Source: Gemmatimonadales bacterium
GTDB lineage: Bacteria; Gemmatimonadota; Gemmatimonadetes; Gemmatimonadales; GWC2-71-9
Assembly (NCBI GenBank): GCA_050733075.1
Contig: JBOHSD010000014.1
Coordinates: 13 to 64,012, forward strand
Reading direction: 5' to 3'
DNA: 64,000 nt
The position numbers were made by a program, and so were the translations under genes. The stretch's first letter is position 1. Every line of letters begins with the position of its first letter. The notes below the pieces were generated by a model. The model made no database searches. It saw nothing but the letters and a program-made list of their open reading frames with translations, and had not been told where the DNA came from. Positions 9,102 through 33,992 of the stretch are shown here, piece by piece.

Positions 9102-11609
9102 TTAGCCTACCACCAGATTCAGCAACCGATTCGGCACATACACCACCTTCCGAACCTCCTTCCCCTCCGTAAACCTCCGCACCGCGGAATCCTTCAGAGC
9201 AGCGGCCACGACCGTTTCCTCGTCGGCTCCGCGGGGCACGGTGACCTTCGATCGGGTCTTCCCGTTGACCTGCACCGCTATTTCCACGGTCTCTTCTACC
9301 GTGAGCCGCTCGTCCCAGGTGGGCCATCGCGCGTTGAAGATCGAGGAGTCGTGGCCCAGGCGCTCCCAGTTCTCCTCCGCAAAGTGGGGCGCGAAGGGGG
9401 CCAGCATGACGATCAGGTCCTCCACAATCTCGCGGCTGGCCACGTTCTCGGCGCGGATGGTGTTGACGAACTCCATGAGGGCCGCGATCGAGGTGTTGTA
9501 GCGCAGCTCCTCGAGGCCTTCCGTCACCTTCTTCACGGTCTGGTGCCGCTTGATGTCGACGAGTCGGGAGTCAGGAGTCGGGAGTCGGGAACGTCCGCCG
9601 TTGTCGCTGGCGGCCGTCTCGGTGACCAGGTTCCAGACTTTGTCCAGGAAGCGACGCGGCCCGCTGATCCCCTCGTCCCTGAAGTCGCCGCCCTCCTGGA
9701 ACGGGCCCAGGAACATGAGATACATGCGGAACGTGTCCGCGCCCCAGCGCGCGATGTACTCGTCCGGAATCACCACGTTGCCCCGCGACTTGGACATCTT
9801 GGCCCCGTCCTTCACGATGAGGCCGTGGGCCCGGAATTTCCGGAACGGCTCGTCGAAGTGAAGGTGACCGAGGCCGTGGAGCACCATCGTGATGAATCGC
9901 GAGTACAGCAGGTGCAGCACGGCGTGCTCGTTGCCGCCGATGTAGGTGGTCACCGGCAGCCATTTCCGGGTGCGCGCCGGGTCGAACGGCCGGTCGTCGA
10001 AGTCGGTGCTGGGATACCGTAGGAAGTACCAGGACGAGTCGAGAAACGTGTCGCTCACGTCGGTCTCGCGCCGGCTGCGCCTGCCGCAGATGGGACACGG
10101 GGTGTAGTACCACTCCTCGTGCCGGGCCAGCGGCGACACGCCGGTGTCGTCGGGCTGGAAGTCGTCGATCAACGGGAGCAGGACCGGCAGGTCCTTCTCG
10201 GGCACCGGGACCGCGCCGTGCTCGTCGCAATAGATGATGGGGATGGCAGGCCCCCAGTAGCGCTGGCGGGAGATGCACCAGTCGTGCAGCCGGTAGTTGA
10301 CGATGGCCTTGCCGGCGCCACGCTCGGCGAGCCAGGTGGTGATGGCGCGCTTGGCCTCGGGGACGGTGAGGCCGTCGAACTGGCCGGAGTTGACCAGGAC
10401 GCCGTTCTCGATGTCGACGTATGCCTCGGTAAGCGGAGTTTCGGCCCCTTCGCTGCGCTCAGGGTGACATACGACGCGGACGATCGGCAGGCCGAACTGC
10501 CGGGCGAATTCGAAGTCGCGCTCGTCGTGCCCCGGCACCGCCATGATGGAACCAGTGCCGTACTCCATCAGCACGTAATCCGCGATCCAGACCGGGATCG
10601 GCTTGCCAGTGGCCGGATTAATGGCGTACCCACCAGTGAACACGCCAGTCTTCTCGCGTTCACCGACTTTGCGGGAAACCAGGTCCTTCGCGGCAACGGA
10701 GCGACGGTAGGCATCTACCTCGGCCTTGCGGTCGGGAGTGGTGAAGGCGTCCACCAGCGGGTGCTCGGGAGCGAGCACCATGAACGTCGCCCCGAAAATG
10801 GTATCCGGGCGAGTCGTGAATACCCTGATCTCTTCCACCCTTCCCGTCTTTCCCGCCCTTCCCGCCTTTCCCGCAAACACGATCTCGGCGCCCTCGGAGC
10901 GACCCAGCCAATTCCGCTGGGCCAGCGTGGTGCTCTCGGACCAGTCCATCTTGGTCTTGTCGTCGAGGTCGGCCAGCAGCCGGTCGGCGTAGTCCGTGAT
11001 CCGGAAGAACCACTGCTCCAGCGTCCTCTGCTCCACCACCGAGCCGCAGCGCTCGCACCGCCCATCGATGACCTGCTCGTTGGCCAGCACCGTCTGATCC
11101 TTGGGGCACCAGTTGACCGCGGCCGCCTTCCGGTATGCCTTCCCTGCCTTCAGGAGTTGCAGAAAGAGCCACTGGGTCCACTTGTAGTACGCCGGATCGG
11201 TGGTGGAGAGCTCATGGCGCCAGTCGAACATGCCGCCGATACTTCGGAGCTGACGCCGGAAGTTGACGATATTGCGCGGGATCAACTCGGCCGGGTTGAC
11301 GCCGAGCTTGATTGCGTAGTTCTCGCTGTGAATGCCGAACGCATCGAAGCCGATCGGCTCGAACACGTCGTAGCCTTGAAGACGCTTGAAGCGACCGTAG
11401 ACGTCGCTGCCGGTGAAGGCGAACATGTTCCCCACGTGCAGCCCTTCGGCCGACGGGTAGGGGAACATCATCAGGTTGTAAAAGGGCCGTGCGGCCCGGT
11501 CGAGATCGGGCTCGTTGGTATGCCGCTCCGCCCAGCGCGACTGCCACTTGGCTTCGACCAGATCAGGACGGTAGGGCAGCACGTCGGTTGGTGTGGGATT
11601 CTGCTTCAC
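9102..11609 (-). CDS. leuS: Leucyl-tRNA synthetase
   Basis: FPYPSAEGLHVGN (HIGH region), VFTTRPDT, and KMSKSRGNV (KMSKS). Likely start is the GTG at 11609, just before YRPDLVEAKWQ. The ORF is open up to 11774. Confidence 0.95.
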   Translation of the reverse strand: MKQNPTPTDVLPYRPDLVEAKWQSRWAERHTNEPDLDRAARPFYNLMMFPYPSAEGLHVGNMFAFTGSDVYGRFKRLQGYDVFEPIGFDAFGIHSENYAIKLGVNPAELIPRNIVNFRRQLRSIGGMFDWRHELSTTDPAYYKWTQWLFLQLLKAGKAYRKAAAVNWCPKDQTVLANEQVIDGRCERCGSVVEQRTLEQWFFRITDYADRLLADLDDKTKMDWSESTTLAQRNWLGRSEGAEIVFAGKAGRAGKTGRVEEIRVFTTRPDTIFGATFMVLAPEHPLVDAFTTPDRKAEVDAYRRSVAAKDLVSRKVGEREKTGVFTGGYAINPATGKPIPVWIADYVLMEYGTGSIMAVPGHDERDFEFARQFGLPIVRVVCHPERSEGAETPLTEAYVDIENGVLVNSGQFDGLTVPEAKRAITTWLAERGAGKAIVNYRLHDWCISRQRYWGPAIPIIYCDEHGAVPVPEKDLPVLLPLIDDFQPDDTGVSPLARHEEWYYTPCPICGRRSRRETDVSDTFLDSSWYFLRYPSTDFDDRPFDPARTRKWLPVTTYIGGNEHAVLHLLYSRFITMVLHGLGHLHFDEPFRKFRAHGLIVKDGAKMSKSRGNVVIPDEYIARWGADTFRMYLMFLGPFQEGGDFRDEGISGPRRFLDKVWNLVTETAASDNGGRSRLPTPDSRLVDIKRHQTVKKVTEGLEELRYNTSIAALMEFVNTIRAENVASREIVEDLIVMLAPFAPHFAEENWERLGHDSSIFNARWPTWDERLTVEETVEIAVQVNGKTRSKVTVPRGADEETVVAAALKDSAVRRFTEGKEVRKVVYVPNRLLNLVVG
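9561..9590. repeat. GAGTCGG-family heptamer array inside leuS
   Basis: GAGTCGG GAGTCAG GAGTCGG GAGTCGG GA on the plus strand. On the coding strand it reads in frame as [10 protein letters not shown]. Confidence 0.85.
10445..10468. repeat. Half copy of the GTCACCCTGAG REP-like element inside leuS
   Basis: The coding strand reads GTCACCCTGAGCGCAGCGAAGGGG, translated CHPERSEG. It sits in a length-variable LeuS segment after HDERDFEFARQFGLPIV. Confidence 0.6.
10839..10874. repeat. Four tandem 9-nt repeats inside leuS
   Basis: CCTTCCCGT CTTTCCCGC CCTTCCCGC CTTTCCCGC encodes AGKAGRAGKTGR just before the conserved VFTTRPDT. Confidence 0.8.
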
Positions 11610-29744: not shown

Positions 29745-30174
29745 TCAGTTCCCCACCGACCTGGCTATGGCGTCCAGTCTGGCATCGATCACCGCGGTGT
29801 CTCGGGTGGCCCAGCATGCCACGTATGGTGGTGATGCCGCCGGACACGTAGAGAAACAGGGTGCGCTCTATGACGCTGTCCGGCGTCTGTCCACCGGGTA
29901 TGTGCGCATGCATCTCGGCCAGGCCGGGAATCAGGAACCTGCCGCGGCCATCCACGCTTACGCCGCCGGCAGGAACCTCCACGCGATCGGCTGGCCCGAT
30001 GGCCACGATCCGCTCGCCTCGGACCACCACCGTCACACCCGGCAGCGCGCGCTCCCGATCCATCGGGATCACGGTGACGTTTACGAAGGCGATGACCGAA
30101 TCCAGCTGCCTGACCGGTTGCCCCGAGAGCAGGAGGAGCAGGGTGGCGTACAGCAAGGGGTCAGCTCCTGGCAC
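29731..30174 (-). pseudogene. N-terminal fragment of a metal-dependent amidohydrolase
   Basis: FVNVTVIPM...VVVRGERIVAIG...VDGRGRFLIPGLAEMHAHI carries the HxH motif. The match stops after ~125 aa and the ORF ends at 147 aa. It is wedged between the rho and serC 3' ends with 14-nt overlaps. Confidence 0.5.
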
Positions 30175-31267
30175 CGGCCGGGCGGTTTGCCCGCTCGAAC
30201 TCCTTCATGAAGGCCACCAACGCCTCGACCGCCGCGCGAGGACAGGCGTTATAGATGCTGGCGCGCATTCCGCCGACCGACCGGTGCCCCTTGAGCCCGT
30301 CGAGCCCCTTCTTGGTGGCGTCCCTTACGAACTTTTCTTCCAGCTCCTCGGTGGGAGCGCGGAAACAGACGTTCATCCGCGACCTGCTGCCGGGCTCCGC
30401 CGTGCCGCGGAAGAACTCGCTGGTGTCGAGGTAGTCGTATAGAAGGCGGGCCTTGATCTCGTTCTGCTCCGCCATGGCCGCCAGACCCCCCTGCCCTTCG
30501 ATCCACTTGAATACTTCCCCCATCACGTAGATGCCGAAGGTAGGCGGGGTGTTGTAGAGCGACCGCTCGGCCGCATGGGTCCGGTACTGGAGCATGGTCG
30601 GCAAGGTCTTGGGACCCGCCTCCACCAGATCGTCGCGGACGATCACCAGGACTACACCGGACGGACCCAGATTTTTCTGGGCACCCGCGTAAATCACCCC
30701 ATACTGCTTGATATCGATCGGCCGGCTATACATGTCGCTCGAGGCATCGGCGACGAGCGGTGCGCTGGCCGGCAGTTGAGGCTCCCGTTGCCACTGGGTG
30801 CCGTAGATGGTGTTGTTGGTCGTGATGTGTACGTATGCCGGATTGGCCGAGTAGCGGATCTGATCGGGCCCGGGGATCCGGTCGAAGTTGGTGGCTTCGC
30901 CGCTGGCTGCGATGTGCACCTTGGCGACCTGCCTGGCCTCCTTGACCGCCTTCTGCGACCAGACACCAGTCAGGAGATAGTCGGCCGTCCGGTCACCGGA
31001 CAGGAGGTTCATGGGCACCATCGAGAACTGCAGTGAGGCACCACCCTGGAGGAACAGCACCCGGTAGTTGTCGGGTACATCTCCCAATCTGCGGCACGCG
31101 TCCTCCGCCTCGGTGATGACCTTGTCGAACACCTTTCCCCGATGGCTGTGCTCCAGGATCCCGATCCCGCTGCCGGCCACGTTCCAGATGGCCTCCTGTG
31201 CCTTCTGTAGGACGGGTTCGGGCAGGACTGCGGGGCCGGCGCTGAAGTTGTGGATGCGATCGGGCAT
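30161..31267 (-). CDS. serC: Phosphoserine aminotransferase
   Basis: [32 protein letters not shown], and [18 protein letters not shown]. Confidence 0.95.
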
Positions 31268-31408
31268 GGGAGTCGGAAGTCTGGGGTGGAGAGTCGAGAG
31301 ACTACAGTCGAGAGTCGAAAGTCGAGAGTCGAAAGTCGAAGGTCTAAGATAATCTCGGGGGCCGGCCTGAGAGTCCGGTCGAGACTCCCGACTCCTGACT
31401 CCCGACTA
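31268..31408. repeat. Inverted heptamer-array element (GAGTCGG family) filling the serC-serA gap
   Basis: Left arm: 7-nt periodic GTCGA at 31307, 31314, 31321, 31328, 31335 (plus 31293). Right arm: GACTC at 31383, 31390, 31397 and GACTA at 31404. The serA TAG (31406-31408) is part of the last unit. Confidence 0.85.
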
Positions 31409-32632
31409 TTCCCGCGGCTCGCGCCCGTCGAGCTCGCTCAGCTCGGCACTGATGATGTCGCGGTTGCCCTGGCGGATCCGGTCCAGCGCGGACGGACCGG
31501 GCTGGCCATCAAGGTGGATCCGGGCCAAAGTGGCGTGGGCCCCATGATAAATGATGTTCTCCACTTCTTCTACGTTGATGGAGGCCCCTGCCAGCACCCC
31601 GAAGACGTGGGCGAGCACGCCCGGCCGGTTCCGGTGGCGGATCGTCAGAACATGCGTCGCCGAGCTTCGGGCCAGCCGGTTCACTACGTTGGGAACCTCG
31701 CCGGTGGCCTTGAATGATTGCACGATCCGGATCACCTCGTGCGCGATGGCCACCTGTGCCTGGTCGGTCGAAGCCCCCACGTGGTGGGTCCCGTAGACCC
31801 CGGGAGCCTGCACAATCGGGTTGGAGAACTCGCCGCCGGCGGCTGGCGGTTCGTTCTGGTAGACGTCCAAACCAACCCGGATTCCCTTCTCCCGTACCGC
31901 GGCCTCCAGGGCGGCCTCGTCCACTACCGACCCCCGGGACGTGTTGATGAGGTAAGCGCCCGGCTTCATGGCAGCCAGGAACTCTGCGTTTACCAGGTTC
32001 CGGGTTTCCTCGGCGCCGACCACGTTGATGGTAACGGCATCTGCCAGCCGGGCGATCTCCAGGGGAGTCTGCGCGTAAGCCAGCTCCAGACGGTCGGCCT
32101 CCTCGTGCGTCAGGCTGCGGGACCAGGCGACGACCCGCATCCCGAACGCCCGGGCTCGGGCGGCAACCTCCCGGCCGATCTGCCCCAGCCCCACGATTCC
32201 CAGCGTGCGGCCGTAGAGCCCGCGTGCCTTGGAGAACTCGGCCTTGTTCCATTTGCCCTGGCGCAACTGGGCCACCTGGTCGGGAATGCGCCGGTCGCAG
32301 GTGAGCAGCAGCCCCAGGACCAGCTCCGCGACCGCAATGGAGTTCTTGCCGGGACAGTTCGAGACGAAGACGCCCAGGTCGGAAGCCGCGGCCACATCGA
32401 TGGTATCGATCCCCGCACCCGCCCGGATCACCAGGTTCAGCGCGGTTCCGGCCCTGAGTGCCTCGGCATTCACCTTCTTGCTGCGGACGATCAGAATGTG
32501 CGGGTCGATCTGCCTGATCAGTGCCGCGAGCGCCTCCGCCTTTACTCCGGGCTCGGAAATCACCTTGCAGCCGAGCTCCTCGAGGCCGTCCATACCGACT
32601 TTGTCGAATTTGTCGGCGATCAGAACCTTCAT
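31406..32632 (-). CDS. serA: D-3-phosphoglycerate dehydrogenase with C-terminal ACT domain
   Basis: GIVGLGQIGREVA, NTSRGSVVDEAAL, HVGAST, and an ACT-like C-terminus. Confidence 0.95.
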   Translation of the reverse strand: MKVLIADKFDKVGMDGLEELGCKVISEPGVKAEALAALIRQIDPHILIVRSKKVNAEALRAGTALNLVIRAGAGIDTIDVAAASDLGVFVSNCPGKNSIAVAELVLGLLLTCDRRIPDQVAQLRQGKWNKAEFSKARGLYGRTLGIVGLGQIGREVAARARAFGMRVVAWSRSLTHEEADRLELAYAQTPLEIARLADAVTINVVGAEETRNLVNAEFLAAMKPGAYLINTSRGSVVDEAALEAAVREKGIRVGLDVYQNEPPAAGGEFSNPIVQAPGVYGTHHVGASTDQAQVAIAHEVIRIVQSFKATGEVPNVVNRLARSSATHVLTIRHRNRPGVLAHVFGVLAGASINVEEVENIIYHGAHATLARIHLDGQPGPSALDRIRQGNRDIISAELSELDGREPRE

Positions 32633-32653
32633 TTGGTCTCCTGGAACGCTATT

Positions 32654-32768
32654 GGGAGAGTCGGGAGCTGGGAGCTGGATGTTGTAGGCCAGCAGACTTT
32701 CGACTGCGGACTCCTGACGAAGAGTCCTGACTTCCTACCCCCGACTCCCGACTCCCGACTCCCGACTA
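32654..32768. repeat. Inverted heptamer-array element (GAGTCGG family) filling the serA-DUF1015 gap
   Basis: Left arm GGGAGAGTCGGGAGCTGGGAGCTGG (32654-32678). Right arm GACTC at 32743, 32750, 32757 and GACTA at 32764. The TAG of the DUF1015 gene (32766-32768) is part of the last unit. Confidence 0.85.
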
Positions 32769-33992
32769 TTCTAACAGATGCACAAACAACCCGCTCCTGA
32801 GCTTGGGCTCGAACCAGGTGCTCTTGGGCGGCATGACGGCGTCGGCGTCGGCTACCGCCATAAGCTGCTCGAGAGTCGTCGGATACAACGAAAACGCAAT
32901 CGCCATCTCCCCCGACCTGACCCGCCGCTCCAGCTCGGCGGTGCCGCGAATCCCACCCACAAAGTCGAGGCGCTGGTCGGTGCGCGGATCGCCGATGCCC
33001 AGGATGGGACCGAGTACCCGGTCCTGGAGCAGCGAGACATCCAGTGACCCGATGGGGTCCCGCCGATCGATGCTCTGTTCGTCAAACTCCACCCGGTACC
33101 AGGCGTCCGCCAGGTACGCGCAGAACGTGCCGGGACGCGGTGGCCGGGGATGATCGGTGGTGGAGATGCGGCCGACGTCGCGCAAAGCGTGAAGCACCTC
33201 GGCGGCCGACCTTCCGCCCAGATCGCGTACCATCCGGTTGTAGGGCAAGATGGTGAGCTGGTCGGCCGGAAACAGCACCGCGAGAAACCAGTTGTACTCC
33301 TCGTCTCCCTGGTGCCTGGGGTTGGCGGCTCGGCGCTCCTTCCCCGCACGCCAGGCGCTGGCCGAGCGGTGATGGCCGTCGGCGACGTAGGCGTGAGGCA
33401 CGCCCAGGAAGGCGTCCACCCAGGGCGCCGGATCTGGTATGCGCCAGACCGTGTGGCGAACCCCGTCCGGGGCCGTGAAATCGTAGAGGGGCTCGGTGCC
33501 CAGCACCGGCTCGGAGAGCACGTCGATCTCGCCGCGGCTACGATAGGTGAGGAACACCGGCTCGGCATGAGCACCCAGAGCCAGTACATGGCGGGTGCGG
33601 TCGTCCTCCTTGTCGGGGCGGGTCTTCTCGTGCTTTCGGATCACATTCTGCTCGTAATCATCGATGTGGACGCAGCCTACCAGGCCGGTCTGCGCCCTTC
33701 CGCCCATGATCTGACGATACAGATAAAGGGCCGGGGCTCCCTCCCGAACGAGAACGCCGCCAGCCAGAAACTCCCAGAGCGCCTCGCGCGCCCGGGCGTA
33801 GATGCGGGGATCGTGGGGGTCGATCTCTGCGGGGAGGTCGATATCCGAGCGGCCGACATGCAGGAAGCTGTGCGGATTTCCCCGCGCCAGCTCCACCGCC
33901 TCAGCCCGGTTCACCACATCGTAGGGGACTGCCGCAACTCTGGCCGCCACCTCCGGGGCCGGCCGGACCGCGTCAAAAGGATGAAGTCGCAC
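32766..33992 (-). CDS. DUF1015-family protein
   Basis: MRLHPFDAVRP...VAAVPYDVV...HEKTRPDKEDDR...YVADGHHRSASA. Commonly linked to serA/serC. Confidence 0.85.
   Translation of the reverse strand: MRLHPFDAVRPAPEVAARVAAVPYDVVNRAEAVELARGNPHSFLHVGRSDIDLPAEIDPHDPRIYARAREALWEFLAGGVLVREGAPALYLYRQIMGGRAQTGLVGCVHIDDYEQNVIRKHEKTRPDKEDDRTRHVLALGAHAEPVFLTYRSRGEIDVLSEPVLGTEPLYDFTAPDGVRHTVWRIPDPAPWVDAFLGVPHAYVADGHHRSASAWRAGKERRAANPRHQGDEEYNWFLAVLFPADQLTILPYNRMVRDLGGRSAAEVLHALRDVGRISTTDHPRPPRPGTFCAYLADAWYRVEFDEQSIDRRDPIGSLDVSLLQDRVLGPILGIGDPRTDQRLDFVGGIRGTAELERRVRSGEMAIAFSLYPTTLEQLMAVADADAVMPPKSTWFEPKLRSGLFVHLLE

Follow-up and report, generated by a model that had tools for sequence, protein, structure and literature searches.

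Identical gene-end junctions on both sides of serA in a Gemmatimonadales genome as a probable by-product of heptamer arrays anchored at stop codons

[quoted passage not shown] A DUF1015 gene (32766-33992; Pfam PF06245, E 8e-102) ends in ...VHLLE with the codons TTA GAA TAG. It is followed by serA (31406-32632), which encodes a D-3-phosphoglycerate dehydrogenase with an ACT domain and ends in ...LDGREPRE with CGG GAA TAG, and by the downstream cistron serC (30161-31267), encoding a phosphoserine aminotransferase. The genes were delimited from the list of open reading frames, with the C-termini of orthologues as an additional guide for DUF1015, and Pfam confirmed DUF1015, SerA and SerC. The gene order DUF1015-serA-serC was found in 15 out of 15 same-genus loci that reach serC (17 such loci were collected). 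An AGGAG Shine-Dalgarno-like motif lies 5 nt before the serA ATG, as originally predicted (32638-32642, minus strand; CTCCT on the plus strand), and is left unpaired outside the hairpin in the predicted fold of the spacer.

The ends of the first two genes are strikingly alike. The 15-mer GACTCCCGACTATTC occurs in exactly two copies in the 64-kb window, at 31397-31411 and 32757-32771 of the plus strand, while fewer than 0.11 matches are expected by chance (0.11 is the shuffle mean with up to two mismatches allowed). Read on the minus strand, both copies give GAA TAG TCGGGAGTC, where TAG is the stop codon of the DUF1015 gene in junction 1 (32757-32771) and of serA in junction 2 (31397-31411). 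Junction 1 spans the final codon and the stop together with the initial repeat units of an array that runs from the A of TAG. The original prediction had claimed identical 15-nt gene ends, with both coding strands finishing in GAA TAG TCGGGAGTC, and this was borne out by two exact copies, both located at real stops. Identity extends past the 15-mer as GAATAGTCGGGAGTC[G/A]GGAGTCGGGAGTC, which amounts to 29 nt with one mismatch.

The spacers around serA are 133 and 138 nt long, and both are made of heptamer arrays that are predicted to form long hairpins on the coding strand. The bracketing of serA by one repeat family, also claimed beforehand, thus proved correct in the form of a heptamer-array hairpin in each spacer. 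The coding strand of the DUF1015-serA spacer folds with -62.0 kcal/mol (z -3.9) and that of the serA-serC spacer with -58.7 kcal/mol (z -2.1). Both have the same layout on the coding strand, a purine-rich (AGTCGGG)n arm that begins inside the stop codon and a pyrimidine-rich arm before the next start, and in the folds both stems start 0-3 nt past the stop. In hairpin 1, the 5′ purine-rich arm (32725-32767, minus strand) consists of three AGTCGGG units followed by degenerate ones, as seen by Tandem Repeats Finder (period 7, 6.1 copies) and in the fold, and the 3′ pyrimidine-rich arm, CCAGCTCCCAGCTCCCGACTCTCCC (32654-32678, minus strand), was assigned by repeat finding and folding to an AGCTCCC subtype. 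In hairpin 2, the 5′ arm (31383-31407, minus strand) is composed of AGTCGGG, AGTCAGG, AGTCGGG and a final AGTC (Tandem Repeats Finder period 7, 3.6 copies; fold). Its 3′ side is a long GACTYTC array (31268-31344, minus strand) that ends with GACTTCCGACTCCC flush with the serC ATG and leaves no space for a Shine-Dalgarno motif. As the 3′ arms of hairpins 1 and 2 belong to different subfamilies, neither hairpin was copied from the other. The 5′ arms differ in their G tracts, with four tracts of at least three G in the DUF1015 arm (GGGAGTCGGGAGTCGGGAGTCGGGGG) vs. two G3 tracts in the serA arm (GGGAGTCAGGAGTCGGGAGTC).

At the base of the serA-serC stem, the UAG of serA and the AUG of serC are found within a few nt of each other, with no Shine-Dalgarno motif. 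A similar start, with a pyrimidine-rich (GACTCCY)n arm placed 0-5 nt before the ATG and no space for a Shine-Dalgarno motif, was observed for serC (window 31254-31281) and for about 10 more genes, e.g., at C5:60061+, C10:60852-, C22:11007+ and C4:132677-; at such starts the stem base puts the upstream stop beside the downstream ATG. In about 20 orthologous loci free of arrays, serA and serC overlap as ATGA instead. Neither spacer contains a terminator-like site on the minus strand according to the terminator scan, and the stems are followed by CCCAAUAGCG and AUGCCC. An intrinsic (Rho-independent) terminator was ruled out, since no U run follows the GC-rich stems. An Rfam scan returned no family at the gathering score, only sub-threshold look-alikes of microRNA precursors (19-27 bits vs. 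cut-offs of 80-97).

Comparison with orthologues was based on 17 same-genus loci and 80 metagenome loci, which as relatives are not independent samples; no strain-level relative turned up, the closest metagenome locus being only 88% identical. The DUF1015 gene ends with TTA GAA TAG in the locus described here (L001) and in L002, L010, L054, L089 and L071, as well as in L093, where a 7-nt spacer without an array follows. Of the six orthologues besides L001, L093 is array-free and the remaining five have four repeat families, all different from the one here. The unit families that begin inside the DUF1015 TAG are AGTCGGG, AGCTGGG, AGGTCGA and AGTCACC, starting at the A, and GCTATGG, starting at the G. 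In further DUF1015 orthologues the final Glu is encoded by GAG and the stop is TGA or TAG; several of these have an array-free spacer of 4 nt. Since TTA GAA TAG is kept with other families or with no array at all, the terminal Glu and TAG of DUF1015 are older than the present array, and the suggestion that they were repeat-derived fails at this gene.

At serA, the picture is less uniform, as the SerA tail after the LDG/IDG motif is strongly variable among 88 orthologues. The serA gene of L021 ends in REPRS with AGC TAG TCGGGAGTCAGGAGTC at the place matching junction 2, so that array and phase are as here and the last codon is different. In L036, L043 and L047, CGG is followed by AAA or AAG and then by TGA, and the array, of the GGGAGYY family, starts again at the second base of the stop; L036 and L047 read CGG AAA TGA GTC..., and L036 continues with GTCAGGAGTC after TGA. 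Compared with the locus here, the T is found at the identical frame position and the array is shifted by one base. The serA GAA is one transition from the AAA of the cousins L036 and L047. In the tree, L001 is sister to (L002, L021), and both L002 and L021 have AGC at the position of the serA GAA.

A separate observation concerns the DUF1015 gene of L021 (metagenome contig Ga0299906_10062024). Its usual stop (after HTF) is replaced by GAA, and the frame extends for nine codons (EQVEMRTSR) into an array with a period of about 15, up to a TGA inside a unit; arrays can therefore supply a replacement stop.

The unit families themselves are specific to single genomes or to a few of them. Three consecutive RGGAGTC units gave 107 matches in this genome (G000), 18 in G002, 10 in G008 and none in 23 of the 31 genomes searched. 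In turn, three consecutive GAAGGTC units gave 74 matches in G005 and almost none elsewhere, and both serA spacers of G005 carry GAAGGTC. Neither pattern was found in 12 genomes of the order's two other families. Each genome has thus refilled these orthologous spacers with a unit family of its own.

Genome-wide, 32 junctions of the type TAG-YY-RGGAGYY (NNN TAG YY RGGAGYY) were collected. At least 14 represent real gene ends (13 by a third-position-GC test, the fourteenth being a tandem TAG TAG at a called gene end), and 8 others lie antisense to a gene start. The collection of all junctions, proposed earlier as a check, demonstrated that a common phase exists: when an RRRAGTC array follows a called gene end, it begins at the second base of the stop in 21 out of 28 cases. 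These comprise 11 with T followed by AGTC, 4 with T followed by GAGTC and 6 in which the two purines after the T come from a variant unit. With all families considered, a heptamer array lies within 12 nt of the stop in 94 of 2708 called genes, the calls being made with a crude third-position-GC ORF filter and not with a trained gene finder. Forty of these 94 arrays begin at the very next base, and in 44 the periodicity extends to the stop. In families that have a stop inside the unit, arrays extend into the coding sequence.

Upstream of the T, in turn, no conserved motif was detected across the 32 junctions. The codon before TAG is varied (AAG in four, GAA in three, ATG and AGG in two each, and others), which gives no support to the defined target supposed at the outset. 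The base before AGTC-RGGAG is T in 25 cases and C in 19; with real stops removed the numbers are 11 T vs. 19 C, as base composition predicts, so that the T excess comes from stop codons alone. TAGTC was accordingly rejected as a general array end, given that the T excess stems only from real stops and that the antisense junctions make up 8 of the 32. Likewise, the genome contains no excess of GAATAGTC (35 copies vs. about 39 expected from base composition). An all-purine codon (AAG, AGG, GAA, or GAG) precedes TAG in 8 of the 14 real junctions vs. 21% of TAG-ending genes (p = 0.003, post hoc), and given this enrichment some process may act just upstream of the T. A junction formed by an all-purine codon and TAG reads like a normal RRRAGTC unit with an inserted T.

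The assembly (3.67 Mb, 65.6% G+C) contains about 305 heptamer arrays that fall into four superfamilies, GTGAACG, GGGAGYY, GAGAGGT and GGCTATT, and form 110 inverted array pairs, or 98 after merging of overlaps. The purine-rich arm comes first in every purine-skewed family, on both strands, and in 89 of 109 pairs overall. GGGAGYY, the superfamily of the arrays around serA, is the second most common one and accounts for 30 hairpins out of 98. For two hairpins picked at random, the probability of belonging to a common superfamily is 0.27, and among neighbors less than 3 kb apart 5 of 14 pairs do; the presence of one family on both sides of serA is therefore unremarkable. Local copying between neighboring hairpins was considered and rejected, as these counts (5 of 14 vs. 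27% expected) give no signal for it. The genome has a sole Y1 (IS200/RAYT-like) transposase-like gene (PF01797, G000 C5:102512-102850, 82.6 bits), and no heptamer arrays were found within 600 nt on either side of it.

Two further arrays deserve mention. An in-frame GAGTCGG array of the GGGAGYY family (4.3 units; window 9561-9590) is located inside a long ORF that an earlier note read as leuS. A third copy of GACTATTC (G000 C8:67893-67970) forms the end of a hairpin's 3′ arm, 4 nt upstream of the start codon (ATG) of a gene for a glutamine-amidotransferase-like protein (MILLIDNYDSF...), which at its start resembles trpG or pabA. Read on the opposite strand this copy gives GAA TAG TC, and no gene ends there; it is complementary to the TAGT in the first, stop-bearing unit of that hairpin's 5′ arm.

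To what extent the structure is kept was judged from 67 distinct orthologous spacers with lengths of 60 nt or more. Their median z was -4.15, and z was below -2 in 46 of the 67. Such low values despite complete unit turnover indicate either that the structure is maintained or that the arms are copied from each other. No advantage of the sense strand was detected: it is more stable in about half of the genome's co-directional hairpins, and the 67 orthologous spacers show no such advantage either (22 vs. 15 for the DUF1015-serA spacers). In the serA-serC spacers the antisense strand is the more stable one in 23 of 30, with a mean difference of 6 kcal/mol, which is probably due to the longer pyrimidine-rich arm. 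In the loci inspected, e.g., L043, L036 and L001, the purine-rich arm that follows serA is far shorter than its pyrimidine-rich counterpart in front of serC. By eye, hairpin 2 has G-U pairs on the coding strand only. Asymmetry of G-U vs. A-C pairs was nevertheless rejected as evidence of RNA function, the hairpin giving -58.7 kcal/mol on the coding strand vs. -62.7 on the other. As to what the hairpins do, we give equal weight, in each case somewhat short of even, to a putative RNA structure past the stop with a role in insulating translation or in protecting the upstream cistron and to tolerated selfish or neutral repeats confined to spacers. A smaller share goes to something else, e.g., a putative G-quadruplex or protein-binding site.

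In our view, the 15-nt identity is probably a by-product of stop-anchored heptamer arrays: both serA spacers hold stop-anchored hairpins, and the shared GAA would be coincidental. Eleven of the 15 nt of the junction are the repeat unit itself, and the T is the first base of TAG; the array opens with the last two bases of this stop (T followed by AGTCGGG...). With 11 nt assigned to the unit and a T that is typical of the family, only the three nucleotides GAA need explaining, given the repeat family. The start of the array may be understood from the composition of its surroundings. The array is periodic as far as the T. Because every stop consists of a T and two purines and the 5′ arm is made largely of purines, the repeat would be able to take in the last two stop bases but not to replace the T, which is under selection. 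At the DUF1015 gene, the Glu-TAG end came first and the present array later. At serA, the TAG-anchored array descends from an ancestor in common with L021, and GAA is private to this genome. Arrays may then change by slippage, the two arms of a hairpin may be copied from each other, and each genome would homogenize its arrays towards its own dominant unit families.

The sharing of GAA by DUF1015 and serA is most likely a coincidence. The final codon is GAA in 1.8% of genes, two random genes share their last codon with a probability of 0.025, and among the 14 real-stop junctions 5 identical pre-stop pairs were seen vs. about 2.3 predicted, which is not significant. Yet, GAA stands at 3 of the 32 junctions vs. 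about 0.5 expected, and both real-stop cases are the adjacent genes; for this adjacent pair, coincidence is not comfortable (roughly p = 0.02). If AGC was ancestral at serA, all three bases changed here, and point mutation explains this poorly. We are doubtful about a further-reaching proposal, that the stop T is a fixed anchor after which each genome actively overwrites the sequence. If true, it would imply a genome-wide copying or homogenizing process, or a co-evolving trans-acting factor, aimed right after stop codons, and the two stop-codon purines would be imprinted on every array unit.

The uncomfortable GAA pair is what gives some room to a different, and in our judgment improbable, account, in which an older AGC TAG at the end of serA was overwritten with the DUF1015 junction (GAATAGTCGGGAGTC) through a short ectopic gene conversion or a template switch; the two arrays are in direct orientation and separated by 1.36 kb. 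At DUF1015, GAA TAG is old and present in seven loci, and at serA GAA is unique to this genome, with AGC in L021 and L002. All three bases of that codon differ, yet the five codons before it show synonymous differences only. Each genome also has dozens of dispersed arrays with one genome-specific unit family, so that some copying between loci must exist. The polarity at serA is ambiguous, however: L001 lies outside (L002, L021) on the tree, AGC may be derived in that pair, and CGG AAA T.. in L036 and L047 is one transition from CGG GAA T... Moreover, the second unit of the serA array is still its own AGGAGTC, as in L021, and the conversion tract would therefore measure 15 nt at most and end 3 nt into non-homologous sequence. 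Nor is there genome-wide support for conversion in the pre-stop codons, whose sharing (5 vs. about 2.3 pairs) is not significantly above chance, or in neighboring hairpins, which show no enrichment of shared families; in addition, hairpins 1 and 2 have 3′ arms of different subtypes. Of the gene-conversion-like copying suggested originally, the whole hairpin was not copied, as its 3′ arms differ, and such copying is not needed; a short junction tract survives as the improbable option just described.

Compared with the preferred reading of a by-product of stop-anchored arrays, we find it very improbable that the exact junction GAAUAGUC is selected for function, e.g., as a termination context or as a binding site through which termination at the upstream cistron is linked to the hairpin. 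Such selection would fit the stop-adjacent hairpins kept at both spacers across the genus despite complete unit turnover (median z -4.15 in 67 spacers), the enrichment of all-purine codons before TAG, and the report that stable post-stop structures control re-initiation (PMC7518266). It agrees poorly with the presence of GAA in only 2 of 14 real-stop junctions, the matching array after AGC TAG in L021, a sense strand no better folded than the antisense one here or in orthologous spacers, and the ordinary frequency of GAATAGTC (35 vs. about 39).

A mobile element that inserts at a short GAA/TAG-like target and brings or creates the stop, leaving gene ends as insertion scars, is hardly credible: the identical 15-nt junction, the recurrent TAGTC edge and the one Y1 transposase-like gene of the genome would suit it, but nothing is conserved upstream of the T in the 32 junctions, neither conserved element termini nor duplicated target sites can be seen and the 3′ arms differ, the DUF1015 Glu-TAG is array-free in L093 and accompanied by four other repeat families elsewhere, T precedes AGTC as often as base composition predicts once real stops are removed (11 T, 19 C), and the flanks of the Y1 gene are devoid of heptamer arrays. 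The insertion at a defined target creating the present stops, put forward in the original prediction, is not supported, since the codon before TAG is unconserved and the end of DUF1015 predates its array.

Among known systems, REP, BIME and REPIN elements are abundant intergenic palindromes that occur after stops inside operons, possibly stabilize mRNA and are linked to RAYT transposases. The elements described here share with them an intergenic, post-stop placement; REPs, however, are fixed palindromes of 20-40 nt, whereas our elements are tandem heptamer arrays. An assignment to REP/REPIN with RAYT was rejected, as no arrays flank the Y1 gene and there is no fixed palindrome.

Heptamer repeats of a comparable kind include the cyanobacterial STRR heptamers. 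Intergenic direct repeats of the heptamer TAACTGA were described in Beggiatoaceae, cyanobacteria and Bacteroidetes (MacGregor, 2015; PMC4679880). Similarly to these, the arrays analyzed here are intergenic, they overlap the preceding stop in some cases, and a recognizable Shine-Dalgarno motif is often missing in front of the following gene. In contrast, TAACTGA provides stops in all three frames and forms mostly direct repeats, while the arrays here are inverted. GGGAGTC has no stop in any frame, and a stop therefore needs an extra T.

The position of the hairpins also recalls the ribosome termination structure (RTS), proposed to insulate translation or to tune re-initiation (Chemla et al., 2020, Nat Commun; PMC7518266). 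In both cases a stable structure is located directly downstream of the stop (here with stems from 0-3 nt). Yet, RTS is a statistical folding bias and not a repeat family, whereas here the structure is a tandem repeat of 100-140 nt that is equally stable on both strands. By analogy of position, an RTS-like RNA-level role of the hairpins is plausible.

The closest match is found in Xanthomonas campestris and X. citri, for which paired GGGAATC heptamers have been described, along with GGGGAYT in Nostoc (Rehm et al., 2015, PLoS One; PMC4692102). According to the passages of that paper drawn on here, the G-rich strand of GGGAATC is found on the coding strand 0-50 bp past the stop, overlap with the stop included, and the C-rich strand just before the next start. 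In the same passages, 70-75 convergent pairs capable of forming stem-loops are given per genome, and the copy number is described as highly variable. The kind of repeat that we describe is already published, in the GGGAATC repeats of Xanthomonas that overlap stops (PMC4692102). Our arrays resemble those described there in that tandem 7-nt units occur at many dispersed intergenic loci (305 arrays), with the purine/G-rich strand after the stop and the C-rich strand before the next start, and in that convergent stem-loop pairs are formed (110; folds with z of -2.1 and -3.9); our unit differs from GGGAATC at one position. Set against the same description, the host here belongs to the Gemmatimonadales, and thus to a different phylum, several unit families coexist in one genome and their set varies among genomes, and most arrays are paired. 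A G-quadruplex reading, considered against that account, would fit only some of our arrays, the DUF1015 arm having four G tracts and the serA arm fewer than four. The rule that arrays start at the second base of the stop is not among the statements on placement in the passages of Rehm et al. (2015) cited here.

In the light of this comparison, the eye-catching 15-nt identity, as a probable by-product of a published repeat class, has little significance of its own. The lasting gain is the placement rule, by which arrays start at the second stop base, take only the phases that offer a T and two purines, and put the purine-rich arm first. To this the orthologue series adds a stop codon older than its arrays and unit families whose replacement proceeds from one genome to the next. 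Models of how such hairpins spread, or of the role that they play, must fit both the placement rule and the orthologue series.
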